Shown here piece after piece: positions 3,220 to 60,636 of a DNA stretch of 64,000 nucleotides. Origin of the DNA: a virus. A program made the translations under genes and the position numbers. How positions within the stretch are numbered: position 1 is the stretch's first letter; each line of letters begins with the position of its first letter. Location of the stretch: IMG/VR virus record IMGVR_UViG_3300046001_007123, one strand, 5' to 3'. The notes under the pieces are model-generated. The model made no database searches. It had not been told where the DNA came from and was given only the letters and a program-made list of their open reading frames with translations.

Positions 3220-3660
3220 ATGATTGATTTATCAAAATACAAGATTATAAAATACGCATACCCCTTTTCTTCAGATGAATTAGGAGTAATGATATGGGAT
3301 AAAATGAATGATCAAGAATCCAAATGGGCGATTCAGTTAACCTTGAAAGGTGTTAATGACACTGGTGGAACAGACACTGATTCTTGGGATTGTTTTTTTC
3401 TTGATGATAAGTTAAAAAATAAAATCGATGAGGTATTAGTTAAATACAATGTTCCGTTTGAGGTGGAAGATGAAACTCACTTACTTTTAGAAAATATTGA
3501 TTTATTACCTATTACGCTGATTGAAAAGTTAGATAAATATTTAGTTGAAAATTTAAGTATTGACGATGTGTTGGATAGAATATCGGAAGTTGGACTTCCT
3601 AACATAACAACCTTTGAGAGATACTTTTTAGATAAACACAAAGATGACGAACAAGATTGA
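3220..3660 (+). CDS. hypothetical acidic protein
   Basis: 146-aa ORF with an Asp/Glu-rich C-terminus. Confidence 0.4.
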   Translation: MIDLSKYKIIKYAYPFSSDELGVMIWDKMNDQESKWAIQLTLKGVNDTGGTDTDSWDCFFLDDKLKNKIDEVLVKYNVPFEVEDETHLLLENIDLLPITLIEKLDKYLVENLSIDDVLDRISEVGLPNITTFERYFLDKHKDDEQD

Positions 3661-4252
3661 TAATATAGAACAAATAAAAAAATTACTCAACTTCGAAAAT
3701 AAGGGTGACTTTTATATGCTTTACGTTCTTAAACGTAAGAAGGACCAACCTGAGGGGGAAAGAGATAATCACCAGTCAGTTAGAACAATTAAATCATATT
3801 GTATTGAGTCCATTGAACATTTGGATCGTAGATACGATGAGATTAAACAACTTTGTGAGATGTTTAAGGCTCGTGCTTATATCCACGTCCAAAAACAAAA
3901 TCATACGGACGTGTCATTGAATATGATGGTTGATCTTGCTAAAAGAATACAAGACGGTAATCATAAACAACAAGGTTTATTTGATTCTGTTGTGGGACAA
4001 GTTAAAACACAAGAGAAACGCTGGATTGTCGATATCGATACGACCGATTATCACGCTGTTACTGAAGTGACACAATTTATAACCAGCCTCAGACCTGAAG
4101 GTCCAAAGGTTGAAATGGTAATCCCAACTAAAAATGGATACCATTTAATAACTGCTAGATTTGATGTTAAAACCTTTTCTGAAAAATATCCGGAAATTAG
4201 TATTCAAAAAAAGAATCCGACACTACTTTATTTACCAAACGTTCTTTCGTGA
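3644..4252 (+). CDS. hypothetical protein
   Basis: 202-aa ORF. No motif recognised. Confidence 0.45.
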   Translation: MTNKIDNIEQIKKLLNFENKGDFYMLYVLKRKKDQPEGERDNHQSVRTIKSYCIESIEHLDRRYDEIKQLCEMFKARAYIHVQKQNHTDVSLNMMVDLAKRIQDGNHKQQGLFDSVVGQVKTQEKRWIVDIDTTDYHAVTEVTQFITSLRPEGPKVEMVIPTKNGYHLITARFDVKTFSEKYPEISIQKKNPTLLYLPNVLS

Positions 4253-4977
4253 TATTTATGGGTATGATAGGAATATACAAAATTACCAACCCAAAAAATA
4301 AAGTCTATATTGGACAAAGTGTTAATATTGAAGAAAGGTTTAAAAAATATATTAAATTAAATTGCCCATCTCAAACAAAATTACTGAATTCACTAAAAAA
4401 ATATGGTATTGATAGTCACAAATTTGAAATTATTGAAGAATGTTTGTTGGAAAACTTGAATGATCGAGAGAGGTATTGGCAAGATTACTATAACGTTTTA
4501 GAGGAAGGGTTGAATTTAATAAAAACCAAAACAGACACTAAAAGTGGTTATTTATCTGAAGAAACTAAAAATAAAATAAAAACATCCATGTTAGGTAAAA
4601 AAATACATAGTGATGAGTACAAGGAAAAGTTAAGACAAAGAATGTTAACAAACAACCCAAACAATATTGAGGGGGTTAGGGAAAAAATAATAAAGAATAA
4701 AACAGGAAAAAAACAACCTAAAATTTCTGAATCTAAAAAAGGTAAAAAACGTCCAGATATTTCTGGTGAAAAAAGTTTTTTTTACAAAAATAGACCCGCA
4801 AATGCTGGAACACCAAAAAAGGAAATTATACAAATTGACAAATTAACTAATGAGATTATCCAAATTTTTCCAAGTATAAGCGAGGCAATGAGAAAAACAA
4901 ATATAAAAGGAATTAAAGATTGCCTATCAAATAGACAAAAAACATCTGGAGGTTTTATTTGGAAATATCTAAATTAA
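4249..4977 (+). CDS. GIY-YIG homing endonuclease (I-TevI/Seg-like)
   Basis: GIYKITNPKNKVYIGQS...ERFKKY forms the GIY-YIG motif. Three NUMOD3-like basic repeats follow (TKNKIKTSMLGKK, REKIIKNKTGKKQ, SESKKGKKRPD). The C-terminal IQIFPSISEAMRKTNIKGIKDCLSNRQKTSGGFIWKY is an IENR1/NUMOD1-like HTH. Confidence 0.85.
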   Translation: MIFMGMIGIYKITNPKNKVYIGQSVNIEERFKKYIKLNCPSQTKLLNSLKKYGIDSHKFEIIEECLLENLNDRERYWQDYYNVLEEGLNLIKTKTDTKSGYLSEETKNKIKTSMLGKKIHSDEYKEKLRQRMLTNNPNNIEGVREKIIKNKTGKKQPKISESKKGKKRPDISGEKSFFYKNRPANAGTPKKEIIQIDKLTNEIIQIFPSISEAMRKTNIKGIKDCLSNRQKTSGGFIWKYLN

Positions 4978-5397: not shown

Positions 5398-5715
5398 ATG
5401 GAAAAAGTTATTATAGAAAAAGATGCGGTTCGCAAATGCGTAATCTTGGAAAAAGACGGTGAGTTTGTATTTCGTTCAGGGCCAGGAGAGTTCCACGAAG
5501 ATGTTGCAAATAGATTCAGAGGAATTGATCCAGAACTAAAGGAATGGAGAATTCGTGGTGGTGGTAGAGTTAGATGGTCTGATCTTGGTATTAGAGTTTA
5601 CGGTTATTCGGTTGACTACGGTCGTATGGATAAAGATGTTGTTGAACAACTGGTATCAGAGTTTGCAAATGAAAATGGTATTGAATTTATAAATGAAACA
5701 GGAGAGGGTTATTAA
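5398..5715 (+). CDS. hypothetical protein
   Basis: 105-aa ORF. Confidence 0.4.
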   Translation: MEKVIIEKDAVRKCVILEKDGEFVFRSGPGEFHEDVANRFRGIDPELKEWRIRGGGRVRWSDLGIRVYGYSVDYGRMDKDVVEQLVSEFANENGIEFINETGEGY

Positions 5716-5716
5716 A

Positions 5717-6004
5717 ATGAGAAAGTTAGTATTTTTAATGGGATTATTCCTATTGGTGTCTTGTGAAAGAGAAATTGAAGTAACCGTCGAAAAAACAACT
5801 GAGGTGGAAGATATTGGTGGTCTTGAGTTTGAATATACCGATATGGATGTGTACCACATTCAAGAAATTGATGGGTGTGAATACATTTTAGTTAATGGAA
5901 TGGATAATCGTGAACCGGCATTAACACACAAAGGGAATTGTAAATATTGTTTGGAACGAAACAAACAAAGGGTAATTGAGGTTAATGAAAAAGAAGAATA
6001 TTAA
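5717..6004 (+). CDS. putative lipoprotein
   Basis: Signal peptide with lipobox: MRKLVFLMGLFLLVSC. Confidence 0.5.
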   Translation: MRKLVFLMGLFLLVSCEREIEVTVEKTTEVEDIGGLEFEYTDMDVYHIQEIDGCEYILVNGMDNREPALTHKGNCKYCLERNKQRVIEVNEKEEY

Positions 6005-6458: not shown

Positions 6459-7721
6459 ATGATTAACCCAACAGGAAATAAATTAGAAAAAATTTTATTC
6501 GAGATCTTCGATAAATCTATCGAAAACGCCGATATATATAACCATAACAAAAGTTTATGGTTAATCTTTACCAATGATATGAAGTGGGTTGTTGAATACA
6601 CGGACACACAAACTCTGTGGTATAACTACCAATTCTTTAAGAATGAAATGGAACTTGTTGGTTTAGATTGTGTTACAAACAAAGACCTTATCCAAAAGTG
6701 GTTTGAAACAAGATTCCTTAAACCTAAGGTTGAAAAAACCATCCAGGATGGGGTAAAACACACCTTTTATCCAAATCGTGGTCAATGGGAAGGTGTTGAA
6801 GACACTATTCAAAATTGGGTGAAACACACCCATTTTTCTTTAAACCTATTAGACCCATCGTATCGTGTTGAAGACGCCATTAAAAATGGGGTGAAGAACA
6901 CCGGAAGAAATTATCACTATACGAGAACAGTTGAAGATACCATTCAAAATGGGGTGAAACACACCCATTTTTCTTTCAAAAAGGTCAACACAATAATTGA
7001 AGACACTATTCAAAATGGGGTGAAACACACCATACAACACGATCAAGATGTCCTTTTGTTGGTTGAAGATACCATTCAAAATGGTGTGAAACAAACTAAA
7101 GGTACTCTACGACATCCGGCATTCGTTGAAGATGCGGTTCAAAATGGAGTTATACATACGCAAGAAATTGATTGGAACCGTGATATCGGACTGGTTAAAG
7201 ACACCATTAAAAATGGGGTGAAAGACACCCAACGTGCTTTTGGTGAAAACAAATTACAAGTTGAAGACACCATTCAAAATGGGGTAAAGCACACATCATT
7301 AAAGCGTTTAGATCCATCGTATCGTGTTGAAGACGCCATTAAAAATGGTGTTAAAGAAGTGAAAGAAGTAAGTGAACTTAGTTTAGTAAGTGAAATATTT
7401 AAGGTTAATAGTAAAAGGGTAATTCAAAATGGGGTGAAGGAGACCACAACCAACAGATACCATCGTCGTAAGGAAGTTGAAGATACCATTGAAAATGGGG
7501 TGAAAAAAACTTCAGATAGACCTTTGGGGATAGAACTTGAGTGCATTAACGACATTATCCAAAATGGAGTGAAGTCCGTCTGTTTTGCTTATAATTGTGG
7601 CGATAATAGTGTTGAGGATATTATTGAAAATGGGGTGAAGTACGTTGATTTTGCTTTTGATCTTGGTTATTATGGTGATACTACGGTTGAGGATATTATT
7701 GAAAATGGTGAAAAAATATAG
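6459..7721 (+). CDS. tandem-repeat protein A (about 15 copies of [VI]EDTIQNGVK[HDE]T with 3-8-aa linkers)
   Basis: 90-aa N-terminal domain followed by imperfect tandem repeats. The DNA period is 48-57 nt. Confidence 0.6.
   Translation: MINPTGNKLEKILFEIFDKSIENADIYNHNKSLWLIFTNDMKWVVEYTDTQTLWYNYQFFKNEMELVGLDCVTNKDLIQKWFETRFLKPKVEKTIQDGVKHTFYPNRGQWEGVEDTIQNWVKHTHFSLNLLDPSYRVEDAIKNGVKNTGRNYHYTRTVEDTIQNGVKHTHFSFKKVNTIIEDTIQNGVKHTIQHDQDVLLLVEDTIQNGVKQTKGTLRHPAFVEDAVQNGVIHTQEIDWNRDIGLVKDTIKNGVKDTQRAFGENKLQVEDTIQNGVKHTSLKRLDPSYRVEDAIKNGVKEVKEVSELSLVSEIFKVNSKRVIQNGVKETTTNRYHRRKEVEDTIENGVKKTSDRPLGIELECINDIIQNGVKSVCFAYNCGDNSVEDIIENGVKYVDFAFDLGYYGDTTVEDIIENGEKI
6720..7718 (+). repeat. in-frame tandem coding repeats (unit about GTTGAAGATACCATTCAAAATGGGGTGAAACACACC)
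   Basis: The repeat unit is directly visible in the DNA. Third positions vary between copies. Confidence 0.7.
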
Positions 7722-7724
7722 AAG

Positions 7725-39677: not shown

Positions 39678-40319
39678 ATGAAACAACTCATCAGACATAT
39701 ATTAAAAGAAGAAGTTAATCGAAAATATTCTAAACCTACACCAAAGGTAGAACAACTTGTTTATAGATGGTTAAATGATTATTTTAATGGTGCTCAAATG
39801 TACCACAACAAATCGTGGGAATCAACACATAGTTTTGAATTTTGTAATCACGGAAAAGAAATATTACATATTACTTTATATTTTAATGTTGATTATAGTG
39901 TTTATGATGATAAAAGAAAAACCGAAGAAAGAGATCTTGAGCGAGGTTACCTAACAGTTCCAAAAAATGTATTTGAAGAGTTATCGTTAGATATTCCTGT
40001 AAGGGCAAGTTATTTAAAATACCTTTTTGAAGAATGGTTTGACGATACTTATTTAGGTGAAATTCAAAAGTTTATGGGTAGAAATGATATCTATATTGAT
40101 GAATTTGATGTTACTGGTAGAGACGCTGAAACTTGCGTACCACCAGTAACAAAACCTGAAGATGTGAGTGATGAGGATATGATACAATATATTCTTAAAA
40201 CCACACTTTTTAAAAAAGATGATATATTAAAATATGAAAATGAAGAACCAGGTTGGATTGAAAAAACTTATTTAGAAAAACTTCGCGGTGATGAAATGGA
40301 AAGATTAAGAGGACAATGA
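39678..40319 (+). CDS. family-2 member (MKQLIRHILKEEVNRK)
   Basis: First of five consecutive paralogs. Stop and start codons overlap. Confidence 0.55.
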   Translation: MKQLIRHILKEEVNRKYSKPTPKVEQLVYRWLNDYFNGAQMYHNKSWESTHSFEFCNHGKEILHITLYFNVDYSVYDDKRKTEERDLERGYLTVPKNVFEELSLDIPVRASYLKYLFEEWFDDTYLGEIQKFMGRNDIYIDEFDVTGRDAETCVPPVTKPEDVSDEDMIQYILKTTLFKKDDILKYENEEPGWIEKTYLEKLRGDEMERLRGQ

Positions 40320-40822
40320 GAGAACTAATAAGAAAAATATTAAATGAAAGTATAGTCAAGGATCAAGTTAAACAATTGATTGATGATGAAGGTCTTGCAG
40401 GTGCTATAGAATATATTGGTGGTGCCGATAATTTAATTAAGATCTTATATAATGGTGATATAATGAAATACTACGAAGAAACGGGATTCCGACCGATAAG
40501 ATTAACTATAGATCCCAATTTATATATTGATGATCTAATTGTTCAAAAGTTAAATTTACCATCAATTAGGTTTTCAGGTCAAGATATGAAAGATTTAGGT
40601 GAGTTTAGTTGGACAACTAATGGTCATACTTATAAGTTTAATGCTCAATTGATACCAAGGGATCTTTACTCAGGTCAAAAAATATGGAGAGTTGTTGGTC
40701 AATCAGGTGATTATGGATTTGGTTATTCATTTATTACTAAAAGAAATACATTAGGTAAAAGGGCAAGAACACAAATATACAACCAAATAATAGATAAATA
40801 CGATTTACAAGAGTACCTGTGA
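40316..40822 (+). CDS. family-2 member (MRELIRKILNESIVKD)
   Basis: ATGA junction. Confidence 0.55.
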   Translation: MRELIRKILNESIVKDQVKQLIDDEGLAGAIEYIGGADNLIKILYNGDIMKYYEETGFRPIRLTIDPNLYIDDLIVQKLNLPSIRFSGQDMKDLGEFSWTTNGHTYKFNAQLIPRDLYSGQKIWRVVGQSGDYGFGYSFITKRNTLGKRARTQIYNQIIDKYDLQEYL

Positions 40823-41664
40823 GAGAACTAATTAGACATATCTTAAAAGAACAATCGAATAAACTTAAGTTATTAAAAGTAATTCAAAATGAAGGTATTT
40901 TTAGTGCCGCTGAACTTGTCGGTGGACTAAATAACCTTAAAAGAGTATTCAAAGATAACAAGGCAATAATTGATAGAATTGAATCTCTTAAAGGTAAAGT
41001 CACCTTTGGTTATGATGGAATCGATTTCCCGTTCAACTTTGATATCATTGGAATGAAGGCAAACAAGTGGAATACTAATTTTTGGCCAATAGTTAATGTT
41101 ACTTATGACAATAGTGAATTAACTGAGGAGGAAGATAACTTGGTTAAACGTTTTATTATTGAAGGACAAGATAGTCCATATAATGTTTCTTTAGATAAAA
41201 ATTACGAAAAAATTAGGTTCAACACACCTAATTATATTACTATTAAGGAAATAAATGGTGAAAATGCTGATCAAATTGATTTCCCTATAGTACCATTTAC
41301 AGATCCATTTGATGAAATGTTACAATTAAGAAGTAAGTTATATAAAAAAACATCTCTTTACGAAAGTGTTGAGGACACACAGAAAAACGTAATCAATTTT
41401 CTTATGAGAAGATATGAAGTTGAGGATAAAGATTTGGGTTGGGGTGAAGATAATTTACCGATGAGGTTAGTTAAATTCGACGTTAACGGACAAACCTACG
41501 TTATCACAAGTTTCGACACAAAAAGAAAACAGATAAATGAGATACTTTATATGTTAATCGAAAATAATATAATCGAGAGACCGTTTGAAAACTTTAACGA
41601 AAACGATCCGTATAGACAAAAAATAGTTAGAACAATTAAAATGTTTTTGAATAAAGTAATGTAA
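40819..41664 (+). CDS. family-2 member (GTG start; MRELIRHILKEQSNK)
   Basis: GTGA junction with the upstream stop. Confidence 0.5.
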   Translation: MRELIRHILKEQSNKLKLLKVIQNEGIFSAAELVGGLNNLKRVFKDNKAIIDRIESLKGKVTFGYDGIDFPFNFDIIGMKANKWNTNFWPIVNVTYDNSELTEEEDNLVKRFIIEGQDSPYNVSLDKNYEKIRFNTPNYITIKEINGENADQIDFPIVPFTDPFDEMLQLRSKLYKKTSLYESVEDTQKNVINFLMRRYEVEDKDLGWGEDNLPMRLVKFDVNGQTYVITSFDTKRKQINEILYMLIENNIIERPFENFNENDPYRQKIVRTIKMFLNKVM

Positions 41665-42113
41665 TGAAAGAATTAATTAGACATATATTAAAAGAGGAGG
41701 TTAACAATAGTAAAAACATTACTAAAGGTATTAATCTTGCGGTTAAATTACTATCCAAAAAATATCCATTCATTGTTGGATGGAAATTGGCTAACGAATT
41801 AAATGATTATACATATACTATTTATGTGAACTTACTTGTAGATTTCCCAAAAGTTAAAGAATATTATGGACTTGAGACAAATAAAGTATATTTAAGATCT
41901 CCCGAATTTATTTATGACTCAGGACACGGAAAACCTTACCCTTTCTCTGCTTTGGATTATGATAAAGTATTTGATGACCCATTTTTTATTAATAAAGAGT
42001 TAGTGAATAATTTTTCTGACATATATAATGATTTACCTGATAGTTTAAAAATGGAACGTGGTGACGACAAATATAAAGATATAAATGTGGATAGTTATTT
42101 TTATGTCAAATGA
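41664..42113 (+). CDS. family-2 member (MKELIRHILKEEVNNSK)
   Basis: TAATG junction. Confidence 0.55.
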   Translation: MKELIRHILKEEVNNSKNITKGINLAVKLLSKKYPFIVGWKLANELNDYTYTIYVNLLVDFPKVKEYYGLETNKVYLRSPEFIYDSGHGKPYPFSALDYDKVFDDPFFINKELVNNFSDIYNDLPDSLKMERGDDKYKDINVDSYFYVK

Positions 42114-43756
42114 AAAAATTACTTAATAAAATAATACAGGATTTTATTTTACCTGAATACAAACACGTAATATGTGATATTGAGGTTAAAGATCCAAATG
42201 AAAGATTTGATACCTTGGGAGGAACTCCATTTAAATCACCAAGTGTTACTATAACATTTATTGGTGGTCGAGGAACAAAACTTTGGCCCGTTACTCAAGG
42301 GATTCAGAAAATGTATGATGACGTAATGGATGAGGTTTGGCATACCATATATGATTATACTGAAACTGCTGTCGACATCTATAGCAACACCACAAAAGAT
42401 TGTGGGAAAGAAAACATTTACCTTAAAGAACATATTAAAAAAGTTTTAAAAGAAGAAACACAAAAAATTAAAAAAAGAGCTCCATTGGAAAAGGCCGTTA
42501 CAACTTTTATTGAATCGTTGTTGGAAGATTATGATCTACCTGAAAATTTTAAAGGAGTCGCTGTTGATATTGTTGATGGTGGTAAAGAATGTCATATTAC
42601 AGGACTATTCGAGAATAGTTTTAATCAAAATGATTCTAATAAACTATTTTCAGTCTTCAATAAAATAAAGAAAGAAATACCAAATTATTTTGGAGACCAA
42701 TTTGATTACGTAACAACTGGTAACTCAACCATAAATAATTATAACGATCATCAGTGGTGGTATGATAAGAAAAAATCAATTAATGAATCAAAATTCTTTC
42801 GTAGAAGAATTGATATGGTCCTGATGGACAAAGAATTCTATGAGTATTTAAATATCGTTACCAGTCTTTCTTTAGAAAGGATTCTTAATAATGTTGAATT
42901 TAATTTTAATGATTTCAACGACGGAGTTATAACTCACCTTATAGATGCTTACTATATGGATTTATCCGATAATAGATCAAACAAAGTACCTTATGATGAA
43001 ATTTATGACTTCCTGTCAAAATATTATTACGATAAGATCAAAGATAGGTATGATAGTTTGTTTACCCAAAACATCAATGAACTTTTTAATCGAAAAGACA
43101 TTAGAAGAAGAACATCTGAATTTAACGAGGAGAACATCATACGATTGATTAAAAAGGAAATGAGTGAAACAGACCCGAACGATTATTCGGATGAGTATGA
43201 TTATGCTTCCGACATAATAAGTTGGGTTATTCCACATTTTTATCCATATAATGAATACGACCCAAAGTATGAGGACACATATGAGGAGATTGATGATTTT
43301 ATGAAGATGGAATACGGAGGAATGATATTTGATTACTTCAATGAAATTAATCCTGATATTAACGATTTAAATGAATCGGAAAACAAAAAGTATGGATTAC
43401 TTAGACCAATAGAAGAGAATGGTTTATTTCAGGTAATGCAAGACACAGGACTATCTCTTCAACAAATCATATCAAAGACAGGTGAACTACCAAGAGAAGT
43501 ATTAGAGAGATACATTAGGGACTTTATAAATGAGGAAGGATATCATCAGACAAAAGGAGATGTAACGATAGAATTTTCAATAGAATTAGATAAAGATAAA
43601 AGTGCCGATTCATTTTATTTGTCGGGAGATAAGGTTACGGTAGAAGTAAATGAGTATGGTAAGTATGGTATGCAAATAAATGGATTTATAGAAAGACTAT
43701 CAAACTTCACTGATAAAGAAATTTATATGGTAGTTAAAGGTATGATTAATTGGTGA
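42110..43756 (+). CDS. family-2-related large protein with an internal second copy of the module (LKEHIKKVLKEETQKIKK at about aa 105)
   Basis: 548 aa. The N-terminus MKKLLNKIIQDFILPEY plus the internal module suggest a fusion of two family members. Confidence 0.5.
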   Translation: MKKLLNKIIQDFILPEYKHVICDIEVKDPNERFDTLGGTPFKSPSVTITFIGGRGTKLWPVTQGIQKMYDDVMDEVWHTIYDYTETAVDIYSNTTKDCGKENIYLKEHIKKVLKEETQKIKKRAPLEKAVTTFIESLLEDYDLPENFKGVAVDIVDGGKECHITGLFENSFNQNDSNKLFSVFNKIKKEIPNYFGDQFDYVTTGNSTINNYNDHQWWYDKKKSINESKFFRRRIDMVLMDKEFYEYLNIVTSLSLERILNNVEFNFNDFNDGVITHLIDAYYMDLSDNRSNKVPYDEIYDFLSKYYYDKIKDRYDSLFTQNINELFNRKDIRRRTSEFNEENIIRLIKKEMSETDPNDYSDEYDYASDIISWVIPHFYPYNEYDPKYEDTYEEIDDFMKMEYGGMIFDYFNEINPDINDLNESENKKYGLLRPIEENGLFQVMQDTGLSLQQIISKTGELPREVLERYIRDFINEEGYHQTKGDVTIEFSIELDKDKSADSFYLSGDKVTVEVNEYGKYGMQINGFIERLSNFTDKEIYMVVKGMINW

Positions 43757-44504: not shown

Positions 44505-44612
44505 AGTCAGGTGGCGGAATTGGTAACGTACATATAATGAGAGTTCTGCAGGCTCGCCCGAAAAGTAAGTTATATGGTGGTATAAATACAGGTTCGAATC
44601 CTGTCCTGACTA
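44505..44612 (+). ncRNA. tRNA-derived element A (tRNA-Leu-type acceptor/D arm and T arm/acceptor; 57-nt non-tRNA centre)
   Basis: 5' AGTCAGGTGGCGGAATTGGTAACG ... 3' ACAGGTTCGAATCCTGTCCTGACTA. The centre contains a 7-bp CATATAA/TTATATG stem and will not fold as an anticodon arm. Confidence 0.5.
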
Positions 44613-47058: not shown

Positions 47059-47095
47059 AGTCAGGTGGTGGAATTGGTAGACTCAGTCCTGACTA
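47059..47095 (+). ncRNA. tRNA-derived element C, collapsed to a 37-nt minihelix
   Basis: AGTCAGGTGGTGGAATTGGTAGAC-TCAG-TCCTGACTAC. The 5' half is joined almost directly to the acceptor 3' strand. Confidence 0.45.
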
Positions 47096-47110
47096 CAAAA
47101 AATTAAAGAT

Positions 47111-48038: not shown

Positions 48039-48422
48039 ATGAATGGATTAGAATTTAAAGACAAACTCAAGGAATATATTAATTCGGAGTATGAAAGATT
48101 ACAGGAACAAAGAAAGGATCCTAACCATAATAATTCATTAGAGTGGGCATACTTACAAAAATGTGAAGCTGAACAACTATTGTTACAATATATAGAAACA
48201 TTAAAGTACACCAAAAAGAGATGGTTTAGAAAACCTGAAACACTATATAAAGATGTTAAACTATGGGAGTTTGACCGTTTTTGGTCCAAGTATTCTGAAT
48301 CTTATCGTAACCATCCAGCAGACAGTGCCGAAGCCAACCTAAGAAGTTGGTACAGATATAAGGCACCATATTCTTACGGTAATAACATCATTCATAAAAT
48401 ATTAAAAGATTCCCTCATATAA
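48039..48422 (+). CDS. hypothetical protein
   Basis: 127-aa ORF. Confidence 0.4.
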   Translation: MNGLEFKDKLKEYINSEYERLQEQRKDPNHNNSLEWAYLQKCEAEQLLLQYIETLKYTKKRWFRKPETLYKDVKLWEFDRFWSKYSESYRNHPADSAEANLRSWYRYKAPYSYGNNIIHKILKDSLI

Positions 48423-48450
48423 CAATGGGGGGATTTTTTGTTTACGGGTA
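48411..48450 (+). terminator. rho-independent terminator (TCCCTC-loop-GGGGGGA, T6)
   Basis: Overlaps the 3' end of the 48039 gene. Confidence 0.6.
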
Positions 48451-48461
48451 TATTTATTAAT

Positions 48462-48824
48462 ATGAACCTACAAGAAAACATACAAAGAATTAGAGAAATG
48501 ATGGGAATGGATAATTCTCGTTTAACTTTTGACATACAAAAACTTGTGGATGATGAAATTATATTCGTTACAGAACCAGGTGATGGACAAGGAGGAATTG
48601 CAAAACCAAATTGGGAAGGGGATTGTAGTGTAATAACATTAGCCAACTTAACAGATGATGAAATAAAATTAAATCCGTGGAGATTAAAGGCAATAGAAAG
48701 ACCTTTTAGTGATTGCATACCATATGTCCAAGATAGACAAAATGAATGGAGTGAAGAAAAATACCAACAAGTTATTGATTCAATAAAAATGAAAGGTGAA
48801 GAAGTTGATAATTATATAATATGA
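48462..48824 (+). CDS. family-2 member (MNLQENIQRIREMMG)
   Basis: Start moved to the ATG directly after the TATATTTATTAAT box. Confidence 0.5.
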   Translation: MNLQENIQRIREMMGMDNSRLTFDIQKLVDDEIIFVTEPGDGQGGIAKPNWEGDCSVITLANLTDDEIKLNPWRLKAIERPFSDCIPYVQDRQNEWSEEKYQQVIDSIKMKGEEVDNYII

Positions 48825-49276
48825 ACCTACAGGAACACATAAGAAGAGTACTAAAGGAAGAGACGTTAAAGACCAAATTAATTCACAACATCAAGAATGA
48901 TGGTTGGTTTAATGTTTCGCCATATGTAGGTGGTGATGATAATCTTAAAAAAGTTACTGACATACATAACGCGTTAGGTTTTATGAAGTTGTTTTTAGAT
49001 CTAAAAGGAGTTGTAAGCGAACAAGAACCACTAATGAGGTTATATAAAAATGAGAATGGGGAAAACGTATTTGTTATAAGAACTATATGGAATGAAAATA
49101 CGATTTACGTTAATTATGATTTAATTTTTAGACCATTAAAGGTTTTTTTAGAAACGGATACAAATATGAAGACAAGAGATTTTTTAGACAAATGGTTTAA
49201 AAATAAGTACGGTATTATAGTTAATGATTGGGTAAATCATTTCTCAAAGGATGATTATATAGGGATGATTAATTAA
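48821..49276 (+). CDS. family-2 member (MNLQEHIRRVLKEETLK)
   Basis: ATGA junction. Confidence 0.5.
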   Translation: MNLQEHIRRVLKEETLKTKLIHNIKNDGWFNVSPYVGGDDNLKKVTDIHNALGFMKLFLDLKGVVSEQEPLMRLYKNENGENVFVIRTIWNENTIYVNYDLIFRPLKVFLETDTNMKTRDFLDKWFKNKYGIIVNDWVNHFSKDDYIGMIN

Positions 49277-49752
49277 TACTCATCGGAGATCAATCTCTCA
49301 TAGTTTCTAGCAACCCCAACCAAATCATAGTCATCCAAGCATCTCCAAGAGTTAACAAATAAGATACGATTATATCCGATCTCAGACACGTTCTCATAAT
49401 ATTCAAGAGATTCGTCATCAATAATAAGAAACTTCGTGTAACCCTCAGATTTACGTTTAATAACAAACCCAGCACGATCATCGGGATCACCAAAGGTAAG
49501 ACCATTCACAATGATACCTCTACTAATCAAGAAATCCTTAAACTCCTCACCATCATTAGATCCGTTCCAATAAGAGCGACCCCAAGTAGATACAATACAT
49601 ATATGAGCATCAAACATTGTGATGATACTATTAAGGACTTCAACAGATTTAGGGATGAAAGAATGTTTACCATCAGGATCACGGTCCTTTAGTTTAAGGT
49701 AACTAACAAGTACACCATCAATGTCAAGATATATAGTAAACGGTTTTTCCAT
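49273..49752 (-). CDS. HAD-superfamily phosphatase
   Basis: MEKPFTIYLDIDGVL (motif I DxDG), CIVSTW (motif II), K, IIDDE (motif IV). The upstream TTTGTACT-ATGGAAAAA copies the + strand leader. Confidence 0.65.
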   Translation of the reverse strand: MEKPFTIYLDIDGVLVSYLKLKDRDPDGKHSFIPKSVEVLNSIITMFDAHICIVSTWGRSYWNGSNDGEEFKDFLISRGIIVNGLTFGDPDDRAGFVIKRKSEGYTKFLIIDDESLEYYENVSEIGYNRILFVNSWRCLDDYDLVGVARNYERLISDEY

Positions 49753-49788
49753 AGTACAAAGATAATAATAATATATGTATGACACAAT

Positions 49789-49873
49789 AAGAGTATACGA
49801 TTAAACTATTCATTACATCCTCCCGTTCGTAAACTCACTACGGACTTCATTCATAATTTTATCCTATACTCTT
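49789..49873. repeat. 85-bp element with 9-bp terminal inverted repeats (AAGAGTATA...TATACTCTT), copy 1
   Basis: Internal CCGT-loop-ACGG hairpin. A second copy (about 80% identical) lies at 50886..50967. Confidence 0.6.
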
Positions 49874-49906
49874 TTGTAGAATGGGAATCTTTTATATATT
49901 TGTATT

Positions 49907-50089
49907 ATGGAAAATACAAAATCACTTTTAGATGAGGTTCTCGAACACTATGAGAACAACGATCAACCTACAGACGAAACTCCGTCGGAGGTTAAAGAAT
50001 CTTTCTGTAAATTACAGGAGTATTTAGTTGGGGATGGGGATATTCGACATCTGTATGATTACTACAATTTAGTTAATCAAGGTAAGTAA
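49907..50089 (+). CDS. hypothetical acidic protein
   Basis: 60-aa ORF with the ATATATTTGTATT-ATGGAAAA leader. Confidence 0.4.
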   Translation: MENTKSLLDEVLEHYENNDQPTDETPSEVKESFCKLQEYLVGDGDIRHLYDYYNLVNQGK

Positions 50090-50096
50090 AAAAACT

Positions 50097-50130
50097 TAGA
50101 TCCTCCATTGTGAAGTGGGGGATTTTTTGT
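50097..50130 (+). terminator. rho-independent terminator (GATCCTCCA-loop-TGGGGGATT, T6)
   Basis: ATCC..GGGGAT type. Confidence 0.65.
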
Positions 50131-50141
50131 ATATTTGTTTT

Positions 50142-50888
50142 ATGGACATTGAAAAAAAGATATCAATTAAGAATTTTATTAAAGACCTCACAGTCTCTGA
50201 AGTAGTTGATTTTTTTGGGTCTTTAAAAAACGTATCAAAAATTCTTGGATATGAATCAATTTTAAATCTTTATGGTGCGACTGATAACGGACATCCCGAT
50301 TATATTTTTTATGACGGAGTTAAACAAACAGTAACAAATGATTTTAATTTTGGTGATTGGACTAGTATAAATAAAATTATTTGGGACTCAGGTCAATGTT
50401 TCCACACAAACATTACTAACCTTTCCAATATGCAATCTACATCAGGTAATTTTGGTATTTACGATTTAGTTTTAACTAATTTCGGAGGTTTAGAAATTCA
50501 CAACGGGGATTTTATTGTGGGACACGATTCTACAATTATTATTTGGGACACTTTAAAAAATGTATTGGGCAATTTAGTAATCTATGAAACAGCTTGCGTG
50601 GAAAGTTTGGGAAATTTAAAGATAGTTGGTGGTAAGTTAGACATTAGAGGGGTAGTGCATGATTTAGGTGAGTTAGAATATGTCGGAGGAGATTTAATTG
50701 TAAAAAACAAGTTACTCAAATCTTTAGGTAATGTAAAACACATAAAAGGTAGACTTAGAATTAGAAATAGTGGGATATCAGATATTGGTTCTTTAGAGAA
50801 AGTTGATGGTGGAGTTTTAATAGATAAAAACACGCCAACTTCTTTAATTAATCAACTTAAAGAACGAAACATTAAGTACAAAAAGTAA
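50142..50888 (+). CDS. leucine-rich-repeat-like protein
   Basis: Repeating LGNLVIY / SLGNLKIVGGKLDIRG / LGELEYVGGDLIV / SLGNVKHIKGRLRIRN / IGSLEKVDGGVLI units. Confidence 0.5.
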   Translation: MDIEKKISIKNFIKDLTVSEVVDFFGSLKNVSKILGYESILNLYGATDNGHPDYIFYDGVKQTVTNDFNFGDWTSINKIIWDSGQCFHTNITNLSNMQSTSGNFGIYDLVLTNFGGLEIHNGDFIVGHDSTIIIWDTLKNVLGNLVIYETACVESLGNLKIVGGKLDIRGVVHDLGELEYVGGDLIVKNKLLKSLGNVKHIKGRLRIRNSGISDIGSLEKVDGGVLIDKNTPTSLINQLKERNIKYKK

Positions 50889-50967
50889 GAGTATACGATC
50901 AATTCATTCGGTTCATAGTCCTCCGTTATCACTACGGAATTCACCTCATAAATTTATCCTACACTCT
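50886..50967. repeat. 85-bp TIR-bounded element, copy 2 (AAGAGTATA...TACACTCTT)
   Basis: Starts on the stop codon of 50142..50888. The internal CCGT-loop-ACGG hairpin is conserved. Confidence 0.6.
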
Positions 50968-51247
50968 TACCGTTATTATAGGTCCATAAGGTAAAATATA
51001 ATTTACAAATTAATGTATATTTGTAAAAAGTATTTTCAGTTATTAATCCCCCCACTTATAAAAGACCCCCAATGAAAGACAGACATTATGGTATACAATT
51101 TTGTTATACGATGAGGTATTCATTGTGGTGTTCATTTTAAAGGAATGTTCAGTTACACTGAACATAAAGAATTAGTGAACAGATGAAGGAATATATGAAA
51201 GTATATTTTAGTATGTAGATGAAAGGGTTATTAAGTATATCATTCAG

Positions 51248-51264
51248 GTCAGGTTAAACCTGAC
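51248..51264. other. perfect 7-bp hairpin GTCAGGT-TAA-ACCTGAC (acceptor-stem sequence of the tRNA-derived elements with no insert)
   Basis: GGTCAGG...CCTGACTAT mirrors the AGTCAGG...CCTGACTAC ends of elements A to F. Confidence 0.4.
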
Positions 51265-51495
51265 TATAGTGATATAAAAGATACCCACTTATTACCACCA
51301 CTTTACTTGTATGTTTAGTATGTCTATTATTAGGGGGTCAGATGTTGAATGGATCCCTTACGGGTCGTTGAAGAATGATTATAATATGACATTATGTCCT
51401 ACTCTAACGTCCTAAAGGACTGTCCCCGCTCATTGTACTCTAACACTATATTTTTTGCTGGAATTTATATATAGTAAAAAAAATGGTCTTCTTGA

Positions 51496-51517
51496 CCCCT
51501 ACAGAGGGGATTTTTTA
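51496..51517 (+). terminator. orphan rho-independent terminator (CCCCT-ACAG-AGGGG, T6) in a non-coding region
   Basis: No ORF upstream, which suggests a small RNA 3' end. Confidence 0.45.
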
Positions 51518-51683
51518 TGGCTGGTCATACAACCAGCAAGGATTATGGTGGTAGAAAGTGGTAATGAAATGGGGAAGTAATAGATCAAAACCCCGTGAGG
51601 GGATTGTGTGGTGAAGCGAACGTGACTGACATTTTGACAAAATCAAGTTTTTTAACATATATTTATTAACAAAAGTCCCCCTT

Positions 51684-51965
51684 ATGATAGAATTAATCAA
51701 CAAGTTCTCAACAACACTAACCGATAATAACGGTACCATAATGGTTAATTATGAGAATGGTCCCCTAACAGGGTTCTGTGAGTATAGTATGATCGAAGTA
51801 AATAACCGATTTAAACAGAAGGCGTGGGTTCTTGTCAACACCGATATGGGTGATGTCATAGAGTTCATTCATTCCAACTCCCCTCTGTCAGGAGAGAAAC
51901 TACAAGATGTTAATAAGTTATTAAGAGATCATTCCCTTTCAAAGGTCAAGGAGATCAATCCTTAA
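51684..51965 (+). CDS. hypothetical protein
   Basis: 93-aa ORF with the TATATTTATTAAC box 20 nt upstream. Confidence 0.4.
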   Translation: MIELINKFSTTLTDNNGTIMVNYENGPLTGFCEYSMIEVNNRFKQKAWVLVNTDMGDVIEFIHSNSPLSGEKLQDVNKLLRDHSLSKVKEINP

Positions 51966-52173
51966 TAGGGGGTTCAAGAACATCATCCTCAAGTAAACCT
52001 TTCTCAAGGGGTTTAGTAGGTTCAAGATCTATATCAGAGATAATATGTTTACTGATCCACATCCCCAACTTAGTGTGGGGGCGTGTCTTAACTATATGAA
52101 TACTGATTAGTATTGGTAAGGATAGAATGGCGATCCCCAACATACACAGAAGGAAGTATAAGATATAAATCAT
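51955..52173 (-). CDS. small membrane protein
   Basis: 72 aa with an N-terminal TM helix YILYFLLCMLGIAILSLPILISI. Confidence 0.4.
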   Translation of the reverse strand: MIYILYFLLCMLGIAILSLPILISIHIVKTRPHTKLGMWISKHIISDIDLEPTKPLEKGLLEDDVLEPPIKD

Positions 52174-52355
52174 TCTTCGTCCTCTTCTTCAATAAGGTTT
52201 AGTTCAGTAGATGGTAGAACACAAGGGATGGTTCTAACGATCATAGATGAAACCCCCAATCCAAATAGGGATGACAATAGTACGATAAGTAAATTAGTTT
52301 TCATATATCTCCAAAAAGTTAATGGTCCAATCATACATTCTTCTAACAGGTCCAA
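52170..52355 (-). CDS. small membrane protein with acidic tail
   Basis: 61 aa (LLIVLLSSLFGLGVSSMIV), ending EEEDEE. ATGA overlap with 51955..52173. Confidence 0.4.
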   Translation of the reverse strand: MDLLEECMIGPLTFWRYMKTNLLIVLLSSLFGLGVSSMIVRTIPCVLPSTELNLIEEEDEE

Positions 52356-53120
52356 CCAATGAACAGTAGAGTCTGTACATAATGAGGGGTAATGTTAAAT
52401 AGAGAATAGTAATCATATGTAAATATAAGTATAATATTTTGATTGACAATATGTTTTTTATAATAGATGATTATATTTATAATAGATCATTCACCCCACG
52501 CAGGGTGTTAGTTGTTCAGTCACTTCGGTACGTAAAGGATAAGATGATCACAACAAACAAACAATAAGATCTGTAATCTCTTACAAACGTGGGGGAATTT
52601 TTTTATGCTTATATATATTATAAGGCAGGTTGGAGTCTACACTCCAAGGGGTGTTGTTCCCCCAGCCCGACATCTCTCTCACATTGTCCATACAAAGATA
52701 GGGAATATAATTGACACCACCAAAGGATCACTAAGTTATTTACTAAATAAAGTTATTAACAATATACCTACCTCCCCTGATCTTGGCATGGGGGTCCTCC
52801 TGTCATATAGACCCCTCCCCCCCTCCGTATCCCCCCCATATATGACATTTTGACACCCTATTAGGGGGGTCAATCCCGCGTGTAACGTATTCGTAAAAAA
52901 TTTTCTGGAAAAAAATTTGGGAAAAATGGAAACTATTTCCCCCATCTATTCTTGGATTTATCTATATGAATACACCACATAAATCCAATCATAATCCGTA
53001 AAGTAAAACTCTTCTAATCTGTAATGTCGACCCCCTCTTCAAATGGATCCCAAATACTGAAAAAAAATTTCTGGAAAAAATTGGGGAAAATGGGAGTATT
53101 TATAATTAAACAATAACATT

Positions 53121-53374: not shown

Positions 53375-53408
53375 AACCCCTTCAACCACGGAGGGGTTTT
53401 TTGTTTTC
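53375..53408 (+). terminator. rho-independent terminator (AAACCCCTTC-loop-GGAGGGGTTTTTT)
   Basis: GC stem plus T-run. Confidence 0.7.
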
Positions 53409-53426
53409 CATAGTATTTATTTATAT

Positions 53427-57712: not shown

Positions 57713-57892
57713 ATGACGAACGAACAAAAAGGGGTGGCTTACGGCAAGTTAATGGTTGAACACACCAAATTACAGAACAAAATGGCAGAAATACAAGGAT
57801 CATCTATCAATTTATCTAACGATCAATTGAAAGAGGTTGAGGAGATCAAAAGGAAAATGGTTTACATTTTTAATTTAGCGTCTCGTCTCTAA
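57713..57892 (+). CDS. hypothetical protein
   Basis: Start moved to the internal ATG (MTNEQKGVAYGKLMVEHTKLQNK...), because track ORF 57686 begins inside the preceding terminator. Confidence 0.4.
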   Translation: MTNEQKGVAYGKLMVEHTKLQNKMAEIQGSSINLSNDQLKEVEEIKRKMVYIFNLASRL

Positions 57893-57895
57893 TGA

Positions 57896-57928
57896 AACTA
57901 CCCACCTCATCGGTGGGTTTTTTGTTTT
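57896..57928 (+). terminator. rho-independent terminator (CTACCCACC-TCAT-CGGTGGGT, T6)
   Basis: Part of a 50-bp block that is repeated exactly at 58536..58585. Confidence 0.7.
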
Positions 57929-57946
57929 ATGTAGTATTTATATCAT

Positions 57947-58516: not shown

Positions 58517-58535
58517 AAATACGTTTAATATATCA

Positions 58536-58585
58536 TCTCGTCTCTAATGAAACTACCCACCTCATCGGTGGGTTTTTTGTTTTAT
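58536..58585 (+). repeat. exact 50-bp duplicate of 57881..57930 (TCTCGTCTCTAATGAAACTACCCACCTCATCGGTGGGTTTTTTGTTTTAT), including the terminator
   Basis: Copy 1 covers the last 4 codons and stop of gene 57713..57892. Copy 2 is purely intergenic. Confidence 0.7.
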
Positions 58586-58598
58586 CGTATATTTATTA

Positions 58599-59802: not shown

Positions 59803-60636
59803 ATGAAAAAAAATCTATTTATAATAAGTGAATCCGAAAAAGAAAGAATCTTAGGGATGCACAAAGAAGCTACCAAAAGAAGTTATATTTCTGAACAAGC
59901 GGCACCGGCAGCACCTGCGGCAACTACACCGGCAGCACCTGCGGCAACTACACCGGCAGCACCTGCGGCAACTACACCGGCAGCACCTGCGGCAACTACA
60001 CCTGAGGCAACCGCACCAACTGGAGAAACAACATATAGTTCTTATAGTGATTACGATTACGACTATAAAAAAGAAGGAGATAAATACTTTTTCAAATTAA
60101 AGTTTGAACCTAAGAGTCCTAAAGCGTTGGCATACAAAAATGCTGGTAAATTTTTATCTTGGACCGAACCAACAGGAAAAGCATTAGAGGCAATAAAAAA
60201 ATTACCATTCTCAAGTGAGAAATTAGCAACCAAACCAGCAACGGCAGTTACTGGCCAACTTGCTGCTGACCAATCTAAGACATTGGCGGCATCAGGTGGT
60301 GGTGGTAGTGTACCAAAACTTGCTGACCCAATTGGTGATGCTAAAAAATTGATGCCTAAGATAGATACTTTAGACCCTGTAAAATCAAGTGAGGTTATTG
60401 CTTGGTCAAAATCACCTTCAGGTCAATACGTCCTTAATACACCGGCAGATCAAAGAGAGGCCGCGTTGGATAATTTAGATCGTAGAAAGGGTGATGCAAA
60501 AACGAGAGAACTTAAAAAAGAGATTAGACAAGCTTTAGGTATGTCAGCTGACACTTTAGTTGGTAAGGTAGCATCTTCAGTAAGAGGAGGCGTCCAAGGA
60601 CTTAAACAAGGGTTCCGACAACAAGTAACTAAATAA
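59803..60636 (+). CDS. protein with family-1-like N-terminus (MKKNLFIISESEKERIL) and a (TTPAAPAA)x4 linker
   Basis: 277 aa. The C-terminal half is Lys/Ala-rich. Confidence 0.5.
   Translation: MKKNLFIISESEKERILGMHKEATKRSYISEQAAPAAPAATTPAAPAATTPAAPAATTPAAPAATTPEATAPTGETTYSSYSDYDYDYKKEGDKYFFKLKFEPKSPKALAYKNAGKFLSWTEPTGKALEAIKKLPFSSEKLATKPATAVTGQLAADQSKTLAASGGGGSVPKLADPIGDAKKLMPKIDTLDPVKSSEVIAWSKSPSGQYVLNTPADQREAALDNLDRRKGDAKTRELKKEIRQALGMSADTLVGKVASSVRGGVQGLKQGFRQQVTK
59905..60000 (+). repeat. 4 x 24-nt perfect tandem repeat (CCGGCAGCACCTGCGGCAACTACA) encoding PAAPAATT
   Basis: Four identical copies with no synonymous drift. The duplication is recent or the tract is length-variable. Confidence 0.8.

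Follow-up and report, generated by a model that had tools for sequence, protein, structure and literature searches.

Why should a viral genome carry two similar palindromes of about 85 nucleotides (nt) on either side of a small gene module, and what do they do there? The question arises at positions 49,789–50,967 of the 64,000-nt stretch analysed here from the IMG/VR virus record IMGVR_UViG_3300046001_007123 (this whole 64-kb stretch is called the window throughout). For this locus an earlier note, made from the letters alone, had proposed a cassette-boundary element, a relative of miniature transposable elements with inverted repeats (MITEs), or a structured RNA used twice, as a 5′ and a 3′ untranslated region (UTR). 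We found that the two repeats are members of a family of structured intergenic repeats that was detected here in viral and metagenome contigs only. Its members follow sense-strand genes in a single orientation and conserve a long hairpin on the opposite strand. With moderate confidence, we read the locus as one variable phage locus in which cassettes closed by these antisense-strand hairpin repeats are shuffled by homology-driven recombination between them. The two copies in the window are:

49789–49873, minus strand: copy 1 of the element (subtype A), resident in the locus; it is an imperfect palindrome of 85 nt.
50887–50968, minus strand: copy 2 of the element (subtype B), which closes the inserted cassette at its 3′ end and with its first two bases finishes the TAA of a 248-amino-acid (aa) open reading frame (ORF).

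The copies are direct repeats with a global identity of 77% (mean column identity 84% including short flanks), the figure first given being about 80%; copy 2 lies 1 nt away from its first coordinates. The inverted 9-bp ends (AAGAGTATA...TATACTCTT and AAGAGTATA...TACACTCTT) and the CCGT...ACGG hairpin inside each copy were likewise confirmed. Copy 2 does begin on a stop codon, inside the TAA at 50886–50888 of the 248-aa ORF, and copy 1 does sit beside the start of a divergent HAD gene, 33 nt from the ATG (49755) of this minus-strand HAD_SAK_2 gene, with the gene's TAtcTTTG box in between.

Both sequence searches and a covariance model indicate that the window holds exactly two copies, as expected if they had arisen by a simple local duplication of no wider meaning, the reading to which the earlier note would have been reduced if no further copies existed and relatives had the same genes without the elements. 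Many copies do exist in other contigs. The conserved 3′ 23-nt motif of the element matched 18 IMG/VR contigs and at least 119 metagenome contigs, and the covariance model (R1), built from 20 distinct copies, confirmed about 120 copies among the matches listed, with 55–105 bits on one strand and 31–41 bits on the opposite strand; among the same matches there were 103 distinct contexts and 84 distinct sequences. A 14-mer scan of IMG/VR (TAAGAGTATACGAT) returned 120 loci, nearly all of them by chance and only three of them true relatives. The model gave copy 1 scores of 82.9 (minus strand) and 32.8 bits (plus strand), and copy 2 scores of 103.2 and 31.5 bits, with E values for the two between 1e-12 and 1e-16, far beyond chance. 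Moreover, the window copies represent different subtypes, each of them 97.6% identical to an element of another phage (copy 1 to the single element of the close relative L204, copy 2 to the HAD-adjacent element of L130/L136) as against 77% to each other. We therefore give local duplication almost no credence.

Outside viral and metagenome contigs, a scan of 185,579 bacterial and archaeal genomes yielded 17 pattern hits, of which the covariance model confirmed none. Searches of the elements against Rfam gave no hit on either strand at the gathering threshold, at E≤1 or at E≤10, and ARAGORN also returned none. Across the family the element measures 80–91 bp, with consensus ends AAGAGTATA...TAYACTCTT. 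The termini are conserved in the main family, and the apex varies greatly, its length ranging from 7 to about 25 nt. Distant relatives have different termini that still pair, for example AATAATACAAT...ATTGTATTATT, and the conserved feature is the pairing, not a recognition sequence. In certain divergent members (L253 sense 2800–2893, L176 sense 4463–4545 and L279 1634–1717), the apex is a canonical intrinsic terminator, AAAGGGAGAC-loop-GTCTCCTTTTT; the ends of these members, too, pair despite a sequence unlike that of the main family.

The folding check suggested by the earlier note bore out the existence of a long hairpin, but one that folds well only on the minus strand, a point which that note had missed. 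As RNA, copy 1 folds at −25.2 kcal/mol (z −4.7) on the minus strand versus −14.1 on the plus strand, and copy 2 at −27.3 kcal/mol (z −5.35) versus −12.5. With DNA parameters the folds of copies 1 and 2 reach −8.7 and −11.5 kcal/mol on the minus strand versus −4.7 and −4.8 on the plus strand. Consistent with these values, RNAalifold predicted a long hairpin on the minus strand of the alignment and returned no structure for the plus strand. On the minus strand, 95.3% of alignment cells were paired, compared with 33–44% when the partners were slid, and the covariation score of 0.252 (0.146 in shuffles) was reached by none of 500 shuffles. Eight pairs showed changes on both sides, such as AU/UA, GC/AU and AU/GU/GC. 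The irregularities of the hairpin are 1×1 mismatches, with no clear bulged bases.

The distribution of wobble pairs distinguishes the strands most sharply. When 16 consensus pairs were scored over the 84 distinct sequences, the minus strand contained 1206 Watson–Crick and 114 G·U pairs, while a single G·U was counted on the plus strand; A·C mismatches break the sense-strand pairs exactly where the minus strand has G·U. Wobble pairs occur in at least eleven different columns, and one U·G pair is the majority state, being present in 67 of 88 sequences. This asymmetry is not accounted for by mutation bias, since a C-to-T bias of the coding strand would push in the opposite direction. At the level of sequence comparison, these data show that the hairpin is under selection on the strand antisense to the cassette genes.

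This result bears directly on the possibility that the element acts on the sense strand, serving the upstream gene as a 3′ UTR, a terminator or a hairpin that stabilises its mRNA. It is true that the element always lies 3′ of sense genes, that the apex of some divergent variants is a canonical terminator, on the sense strand a G+C stem with TTTTT behind it, and that no other terminator was detected downstream of the 248-aa gene of the window. However, the sense strand has no consensus structure, its fold is weak as RNA and not significant as DNA, and the main types lack a U tract. In many contexts the element comes only after the upstream gene's own canonical terminator (GGGGGATTTTTT), and would therefore often not be part of the sense mRNA. 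We regard a sense-strand role as highly unlikely, and the suggestion of a structured RNA serving as a 5′ and 3′ UTR was abandoned on the same two grounds, the empty sense-strand consensus fold and the position beyond the terminator.

As to which nucleic acid folds, we lean somewhat towards antisense RNA rather than single-stranded DNA, because the hairpin is much more stable as RNA and prefers a wobble pair; a hairpin in single-stranded DNA is the alternative form. An RNA would also permit a different ranking of functions, in which the element is primarily an antisense-strand RNA (a small RNA, processing site, protective stem, or barrier/terminator) and the cassette boundary is a side effect of its repetition. 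This overlaps with the explanation we prefer and differs from it solely in which role is primary. The strong minus-strand fold, the conserved G·U pair with its compensatory changes and the 114-to-1 strand asymmetry of G·U argue for it, as do the minus-strand units that lie rightward of the array, where a promoter box is present at 52700 and small ORFs of that strand at 51955–52449, and the position of the counterpart of copy 1, just upstream of the minus-strand HAD promoter in all six genomes examined. Against this stand the missing U tract after the hairpin on the minus strand, the lack of any Rfam match on either strand even at E≤10, and the fact that a Bacteroidota-type promoter faces the element on the antisense strand in just 3 of 90 contexts. 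On balance, a primary antisense-RNA role is rather unlikely. We also considered a TAAATTTA box in the stem as the source of the folded RNA and rejected it, as a transcript starting there would be left without one hairpin arm.

The placement of the elements is as constrained as their structure. In all 103 unique contexts the element follows a sense-strand ORF, always in one orientation. The upstream stop codon falls within its first 12 nt in about 45% of contexts, and T|AA spans the junction in 27. Elements are confined to one locus per contig, where one to four copies share a uniform orientation; loci of 10–64 kb hold one or two copies at most 1.3 kb apart, and the 6.8-kb locus of L128 holds four. 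The cassettes so delimited are 0.6–2.7 kb long with 1–8 genes. A TAnnTTTG sense promoter follows within 150 nt in 22 of 90 contexts, at a spacing of 15–138 nt and outside the conserved element, the box lying only 15–47 nt away in some of them. After the last element of an array comes a conserved ORF-free region rich in short hairpins (about 50969–51680 in the window). The ends of the element border on 72 different flank clusters upstream and 39 downstream, and, in small and non-independent samples, the element arms track the upstream gene more than the downstream flank, while the apex varies freely.

So many different neighbours, together with 9-bp terminal inverted repeats, small size and discrete ends, are features that a MITE would also have, that is, a non-autonomous transposon whose transposase is supplied from elsewhere. 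Several findings speak against this reading. Target-site duplications were seen in 18 of 102 cases at k=2, in 2 of 102 at k=3–4 and in none of 102 at k≥5, and no TA rule was apparent. The copies are not dispersed: they stay in one locus, and their orientation to the genes is always the same. The scan of bacterial and archaeal genomes gave no confirmed copy, the termini co-vary instead of keeping their sequence, and no transposase with matching ends was seen. A MITE, one of the first suggestions, is thus very improbable, and together with the sense-UTR and local-duplication readings it can be considered largely excluded.

An OrfB_IS605 ("TnpB") hit near the elements was examined as a candidate transposase and rejected, because it is a Cas12f-like protein accompanied by a CRISPR array of its own. 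The 395-aa protein matches Pfam OrfB_IS605, Cas12f1-like_TNB and HTH_OrfB_IS605, and its gene is followed by an array of 3–7 repeats of 36 nt (GGTGTGAGTGAYCCACAAATGAAAGGTAATCACAAC) with 30-nt spacers. Such units were located in L274 (1773–2957, minus strand; array about 1480–1700), L227 (2073–3236, plus strand; array 3351–3730), L168 (6076–7242, minus strand; array 5512–5962) and L246 (1–936). They lie upstream of the 85-nt element, as the last cassette in L274 and with a gap of about 1.2–2.6 kb between array and element in L227 and L168. To judge from domains and repeats, gene and array constitute a compact phage-borne type V CRISPR-Cas system.

How the cassettes move can be read from relatives that lack the one in the window. 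Homologues of the HAD gene with 87–90% identity are present in three viral contigs, a closer relative, L204, was found among the metagenome matches, and L222 has the same flanks. In five relatives (L204, L136, L137, L138 and L222), the HAD gene is followed by one element and then by the homologue of window positions from about 50990–51110 onward, from which it follows that the window carries an extra 1.1-kb cassette composed of the two-gene cargo and copy 2. The same type of element-bounded insertion or deletion (indel) separates L221 from L228, L130 from L124, L176 from L177 and L253 from L175, and different cassettes stand behind the same gene and element in L128 and L198. Of the terms proposed at the outset, cassette-boundary element is thus the one that holds: where the window has element–cassette–element the relatives have a single element, and co-oriented arrays of up to four occur elsewhere. 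The search that the earlier note had called for, for further copies and empty sites, yielded both, with about 120 related copies and the five empty-site relatives.

We mapped crossovers by comparing the single element of an empty genome with both elements of the filled genome:

Window / L204: single element like the left copy throughout; switch beyond column 86.
L221 / L228: resemblance to the left copy at column 1 and to the right copy from column 10 on; switch in columns 1–10.
L130 / L124: resemblance to the left copy up to column 10 and to the right copy from column 37 on; switch inside a block of 26 identical nt.
L130 / L167: resemblance first to the left and then to the right copy; switch at about columns 57–83.

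The switch point varies by pair, which argues for homologous recombination between diverged repeats and not for an enzyme acting at a fixed site. Chimeric arm/apex combinations among family members, partial elements that retain only the first 19–42 nt, and breakpoints at gene starts and promoters fit the same process; indeed, conserved gene-start and promoter modules are further points at which homology between contexts begins. We infer from these patterns that recombination is the mechanism of cassette movement.

The gene-start modules have a recognisable content of their own. The same N-terminal helix (MNLQE.IRRILKEE or MKKIIRLTE.DL) opens many small proteins, encoded in the window at 39678–42457, 48438, 48821, 53121 and 53427, in L069 at about 490 and in L253 at about 1300, and truncated "MNLQEQII*" remnants lie upstream of some genes. 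Since homology between otherwise differing contexts begins at the DNA of this helix motif, conserved gene starts would also act as recombination points.

Each element closes a self-contained cassette, consisting of one or more promoters and genes, in a hyper-variable locus beside a conserved non-coding region. In the window, copy 1 is the resident element next to the HAD gene, and 49874–50968, with two small units and copy 2, is the extra cassette behind it. In the mechanism we propose, cassettes may be gained, lost or swapped through homology-driven recombination between the repeats, with other short conserved modules (promoters and gene starts) possibly serving the same end. Such exchange, in which a cassette is looped out or in, could involve a single genome or several co-infecting ones. 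The element is nevertheless more than passive homology, being kept by selection as a long hairpin on the antisense strand; in an antisense RNA this hairpin might provide a stable end, a processing site, or a barrier to transcripts entering from the minus-strand units on the right.

The precision of the cassette ends also brings integrons to mind. Here the elements would be attC-like sites folding as bottom-strand single-stranded DNA, and a phage or host recombinase would move cassettes of gene plus element. The geometry is that of attC: an 80–91-bp imperfect palindrome at the 3′ end of the cassette ORF, often over the stop codon, uniformly oriented and arrayed in one locus, with conserved termini, a variable apex and folding specific to the strand opposite the genes. 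The indel unit, a cassette with its own element placed right after the resident element even if the two elements are dissimilar, agrees with such a reaction. So do the precise junctions with the 72 upstream and 39 downstream flank clusters, and so does the way in which the element type travels with the upstream gene, exemplified by a 49%-identical homologue of the 248-aa cargo protein in L279–L282 that again has a divergent element at its stop codon. An attC-type reaction, however, has one fixed crossover, whereas the crossovers observed here vary by pair. The termini lack the RYYYAAC/GTTRRRY core, and those of the deeper relatives are quite different while still pairing. The hairpin is weak as DNA, the conserved G·U pair (67 of 88 sequences) is of a kind typical of RNA that would destabilise DNA, and the cassettes have promoters of their own. 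Nor did we find a tyrosine recombinase or a recurrent recombinase: none was among the best 25 of 31 Pfam families in the 83 window ORFs, and none recurred among 150 neighbour proteins, for which the best 25 Pfam families were listed and a Resolvase domain appeared in one member. Taken together, we judge integron-like movement quite unlikely.

Homology-driven shuffling between the repeats faces difficulties as well, and the following points weigh against it. Adjacent elements of an array are never more than 85% identical, a trend that is not significant (P ~0.07; Mann–Whitney 0.36). In the indels of L253 and L176 the flanking elements are too unlike to recombine together, so that other homology or another process is needed. 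Homologous recombination cannot create many new nucleotide-precise junctions with unrelated genes, and recombination alone does not explain the selection for a strand-specific hairpin. The rarity of Bacteroidota-type promoters facing the element counts against a source for the minus-strand RNA, and the recombinase scan of the window covered 64 kb of a genome that is possibly larger than 120 kb. A further possibility would be a new integron-like gene-capture platform, in which the antisense-strand hairpin, as single-stranded DNA or RNA, is used by an enzyme or an RNA-templated process to make precise junctions with more than 70 unrelated genes, and homologous recombination reshuffles the products afterwards. 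We consider this possibility unlikely; if true, it would be a platform whose cargo includes restriction-modification genes and, in relatives, the compact Cas12f-like CRISPR system.

The cassette of the window and its surroundings contain the following features:

49874–50886, plus strand: cassette cargo, two self-contained transcription units, missing from five relatives.
49874–49902, plus strand: promoter of the first cassette gene, with TTG at the element junction (49874–49876) and TAtaTTTG at 49895–49902, 4 nt before the ATG.
49907–50089, plus strand: 60-aa acidic ORF without a family match, called as a gene in four public contigs.
50098–50131, plus strand: intrinsic terminator between the two cassette genes, a 12-bp stem (50098–50125) followed by a T run.
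50130–50137, plus strand: promoter box of the second cassette gene, TAtaTTTG; ATG at 50142.
50142–50888, plus strand: 248-aa repeat protein ORF, possibly L-domain or leucine-rich-repeat-like; its stop overlaps copy 2.
49273–49755, minus strand: HAD_SAK_2 phosphatase-like gene (Pfam 8.7e-10), left neighbour of the locus, with its own promoter box at 49757–49764.
50967–50994, no strand assigned: short hairpin TTACC...GGTAA directly 3′ of copy 2, missing or shortened in L204.
50995–51680, no strand assigned: conserved ORF-free region that also follows the last array element in relatives.

The repeats had been described as flanking exactly one transcription unit, which required correction: they enclose two, each with its own TAnnTTTG box and with the terminator between them. 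The promoter module of the first unit (TTGTAGAATGGGG...TAtcTTTG) recurs at the head of cassettes in L245, L253 and L128. The description of the 248-aa product as leucine-rich-repeat-like found weak support, its Pfam match to Recep_L_domain (E 0.0016, 19 bits) falling under the 21.8 cutoff, though two distant homologues carry the same precomputed domain. An IMG/VR search returned no close relative of this protein. Public contigs with an identical protein always showed the same context and therefore provide no independent insertion site; samples with contigs that encode the cargo protein are 3300042567, 3300034062, ERZ27272060 and ERZ27272103. Genes found as cargo in the family encode, among others, an N6/N4 DNA methylase (next to a partner gene), a YceI protein and secreted proteins, and many are ORFans; in L130/L136 the HAD gene itself lies inside a two-element cassette.

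Short hairpins similar to the one at 50967–50994 (TTACCGT...ACGGTAA) stand after many family members. The ORF-free region beyond it contains a TAtaTTTG box at 51016–51023 that no ORF follows, runs rich in C or in G, and palindromes (TGTTCA/TGAACA) at 51125–51190. No Rfam family matches 50995–51680, a region that may represent an operator, an origin or a gene for a non-coding RNA; GC skew over the whole window showed no switch near the element locus, leaving a replication origin there unsupported. After the last element in relatives (for example in the reverse complement of L136, 10600–10640), we observed a further hairpin, with stem arms TATAAAGGATATGT and ACATATCTTATA around the 13-nt loop CCCATTAATTACC, which occurs in either orientation depending on the phage; the loop would thus seem to undergo flip-flop inversion between the stem arms.

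The window as a whole is AT-rich (about 32% G+C), carries nearly all its genes on the plus strand and encodes phage-like functions, namely thymidylate synthase, ClpP, lysozyme, a homologue of Acb3 (an inhibitor of the cyclic-oligonucleotide-based anti-phage signalling system, CBASS), and HNH and GIY-YIG nucleases. One window protein has a type IX secretion sorting domain, and a motif scan located TAnnTTTG boxes 4 nt before the ATG of window genes; the mRNAs are therefore expected to be leaderless or nearly so. The sorting domain and the promoter boxes we take to be marks of a Bacteroidota host. Related contigs came mostly from freshwater samples and reach sizes of 280–304 kb. We infer that the phages carrying these elements are large, AT-rich freshwater phages infecting Bacteroidota. 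They may be viruses of the same kind as a described group of freshwater Bacteroidetes phages with 293–331-kb genomes and 31–34% G+C (PMC9723584). A search of 50,697 GenBank phage records gave no match to positions 49200–51200 (blastn) or to a 548-aa window protein (tblastn).

Several other repeat structures occur in the window. Many of its genes are set apart by composite repeats in which a promoter comes after a terminator (GGGGGATTTTTT), for example at 48421–48463, 53384–53426, 57869–57941 and 58524–58596. Two adjacent ORFs at 6459–8918 (420 and 397 aa) are made of about 26–35 copies of a 66-nt (22-aa) repeat, with a weak Dodecin match as their only Pfam hit, and a perfect 24-nt tandem repeat (CACCGGCAGCACCTGCGGCAACTA) lies at 59879–60031 within the ORF at 59803–60636. 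Between 44505 and 48022 we found five full scaffolds resembling transfer RNA (tRNA), at 44505, 46766, 47349, 47515 and 47922, and a shortened copy at 47059–47100. The acceptor stem, the Leu-like D arm and the perfect T arm are common to them all, and the middle, 38–85 nt long, differs each time, giving total lengths of 97–145 nt. The Rfam tRNA model scored four of them at 35–44 bits and ARAGORN called none. The scaffolds are interleaved with small ORFs near an RNA-repair-type HAD gene, and L204 has about eight of them in 2 kb.

Beyond T4-like phages, it is poorly understood how large phages exchange accessory genes for defence, counter-defence and host takeover. The family described here offers a marker of one such exchange locus, searchable by covariance model or by the 23-nt motif in abundant large freshwater phages, with natural filled and empty sites and mosaics that record crossover events. 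Among its cargo are a DNA methylase together with its partner, secreted proteins and, on the side of the relatives, a type V CRISPR-Cas system of miniature size. A strict antisense-strand hairpin is unexpected for a mere recombination repeat, and predicts an antisense RNA or a single-stranded DNA intermediate at every cassette end.

Among known systems, the repetitive extragenic palindromes (REPs) and the bacterial interspersed mosaic elements (BIMEs) resemble the element in being imperfect palindromes downstream of genes with a strand-specific G·U pattern, but REPs are 20–40 nt long, occur in hundreds of dispersed chromosomal copies and are linked to a REP-associated tyrosine transposase (RAYT), none of which applies here. 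Bacterial MITEs (Correia, repeat unit of pneumococcus (RUP) and IS630-derived elements) have the same size range, terminal inverted repeats, whole-element hairpin and intergenic position; in contrast to them, the element has no TA or other target duplication, is undispersed, keeps a single orientation and was unconfirmed in the bacterial genomes scanned.

A structural parallel is found in integron attC sites, and in clusters of attC sites lacking integron integrases (CALINs). Both these sites and the elements described here are imperfect palindromes within the attC range (about 57–141 bp) at the 3′ end of each cassette, form co-oriented arrays with conserved ends and a variable centre, fold on the strand opposite the genes, and often have the stop codon inside the site. 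The elements differ by having neither the attC core nor clear extrahelical bases, by a crossover that is not fixed, by cassettes that carry promoters, and by a hairpin far more stable as RNA than as DNA; neither attI nor IntI was found, the latter in the best 25 Pfam families listed for the window ORFs and for the 150 neighbour proteins.

The promoter-early stem-loop (PeSL) cassettes of T4-like phages, for which recombination between copies has been proposed as a means of shuffling (Arbiol et al. 2010, PMC2839356; Comeau et al. 2014, PMC4122927), differ in several respects. In a PeSL, a sigma-70 promoter is joined to a G+C-rich stem-loop acting as terminator of sense transcription, whereas the element here is an AT-rich hairpin of 80–91 nt with no conserved promoter (a box follows in 22 of 90 contexts) and no U tract, which folds on the antisense strand and has no consensus fold on the sense strand. 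PeSLs occupy many hyperplastic regions, as opposed to one locus here, and the phages concerned here probably infect Bacteroidota. The two otherwise correspond: both are short, repeated intergenic stem-loop motifs concentrated in hyper-variable (hyperplastic) regions, both begin at the upstream stop codon and adjoin ORFan genes with their own promoters, and both bound insertions, deletions and replacements between related phages, as in the five independent indel pairs found here. The variable crossover positions inside the elements likewise fit the recombination proposed for PeSLs. Recombination-prone regulatory or structural repeats that bound phage cassettes are thus known; what is unusual here is the antisense-strand hairpin.

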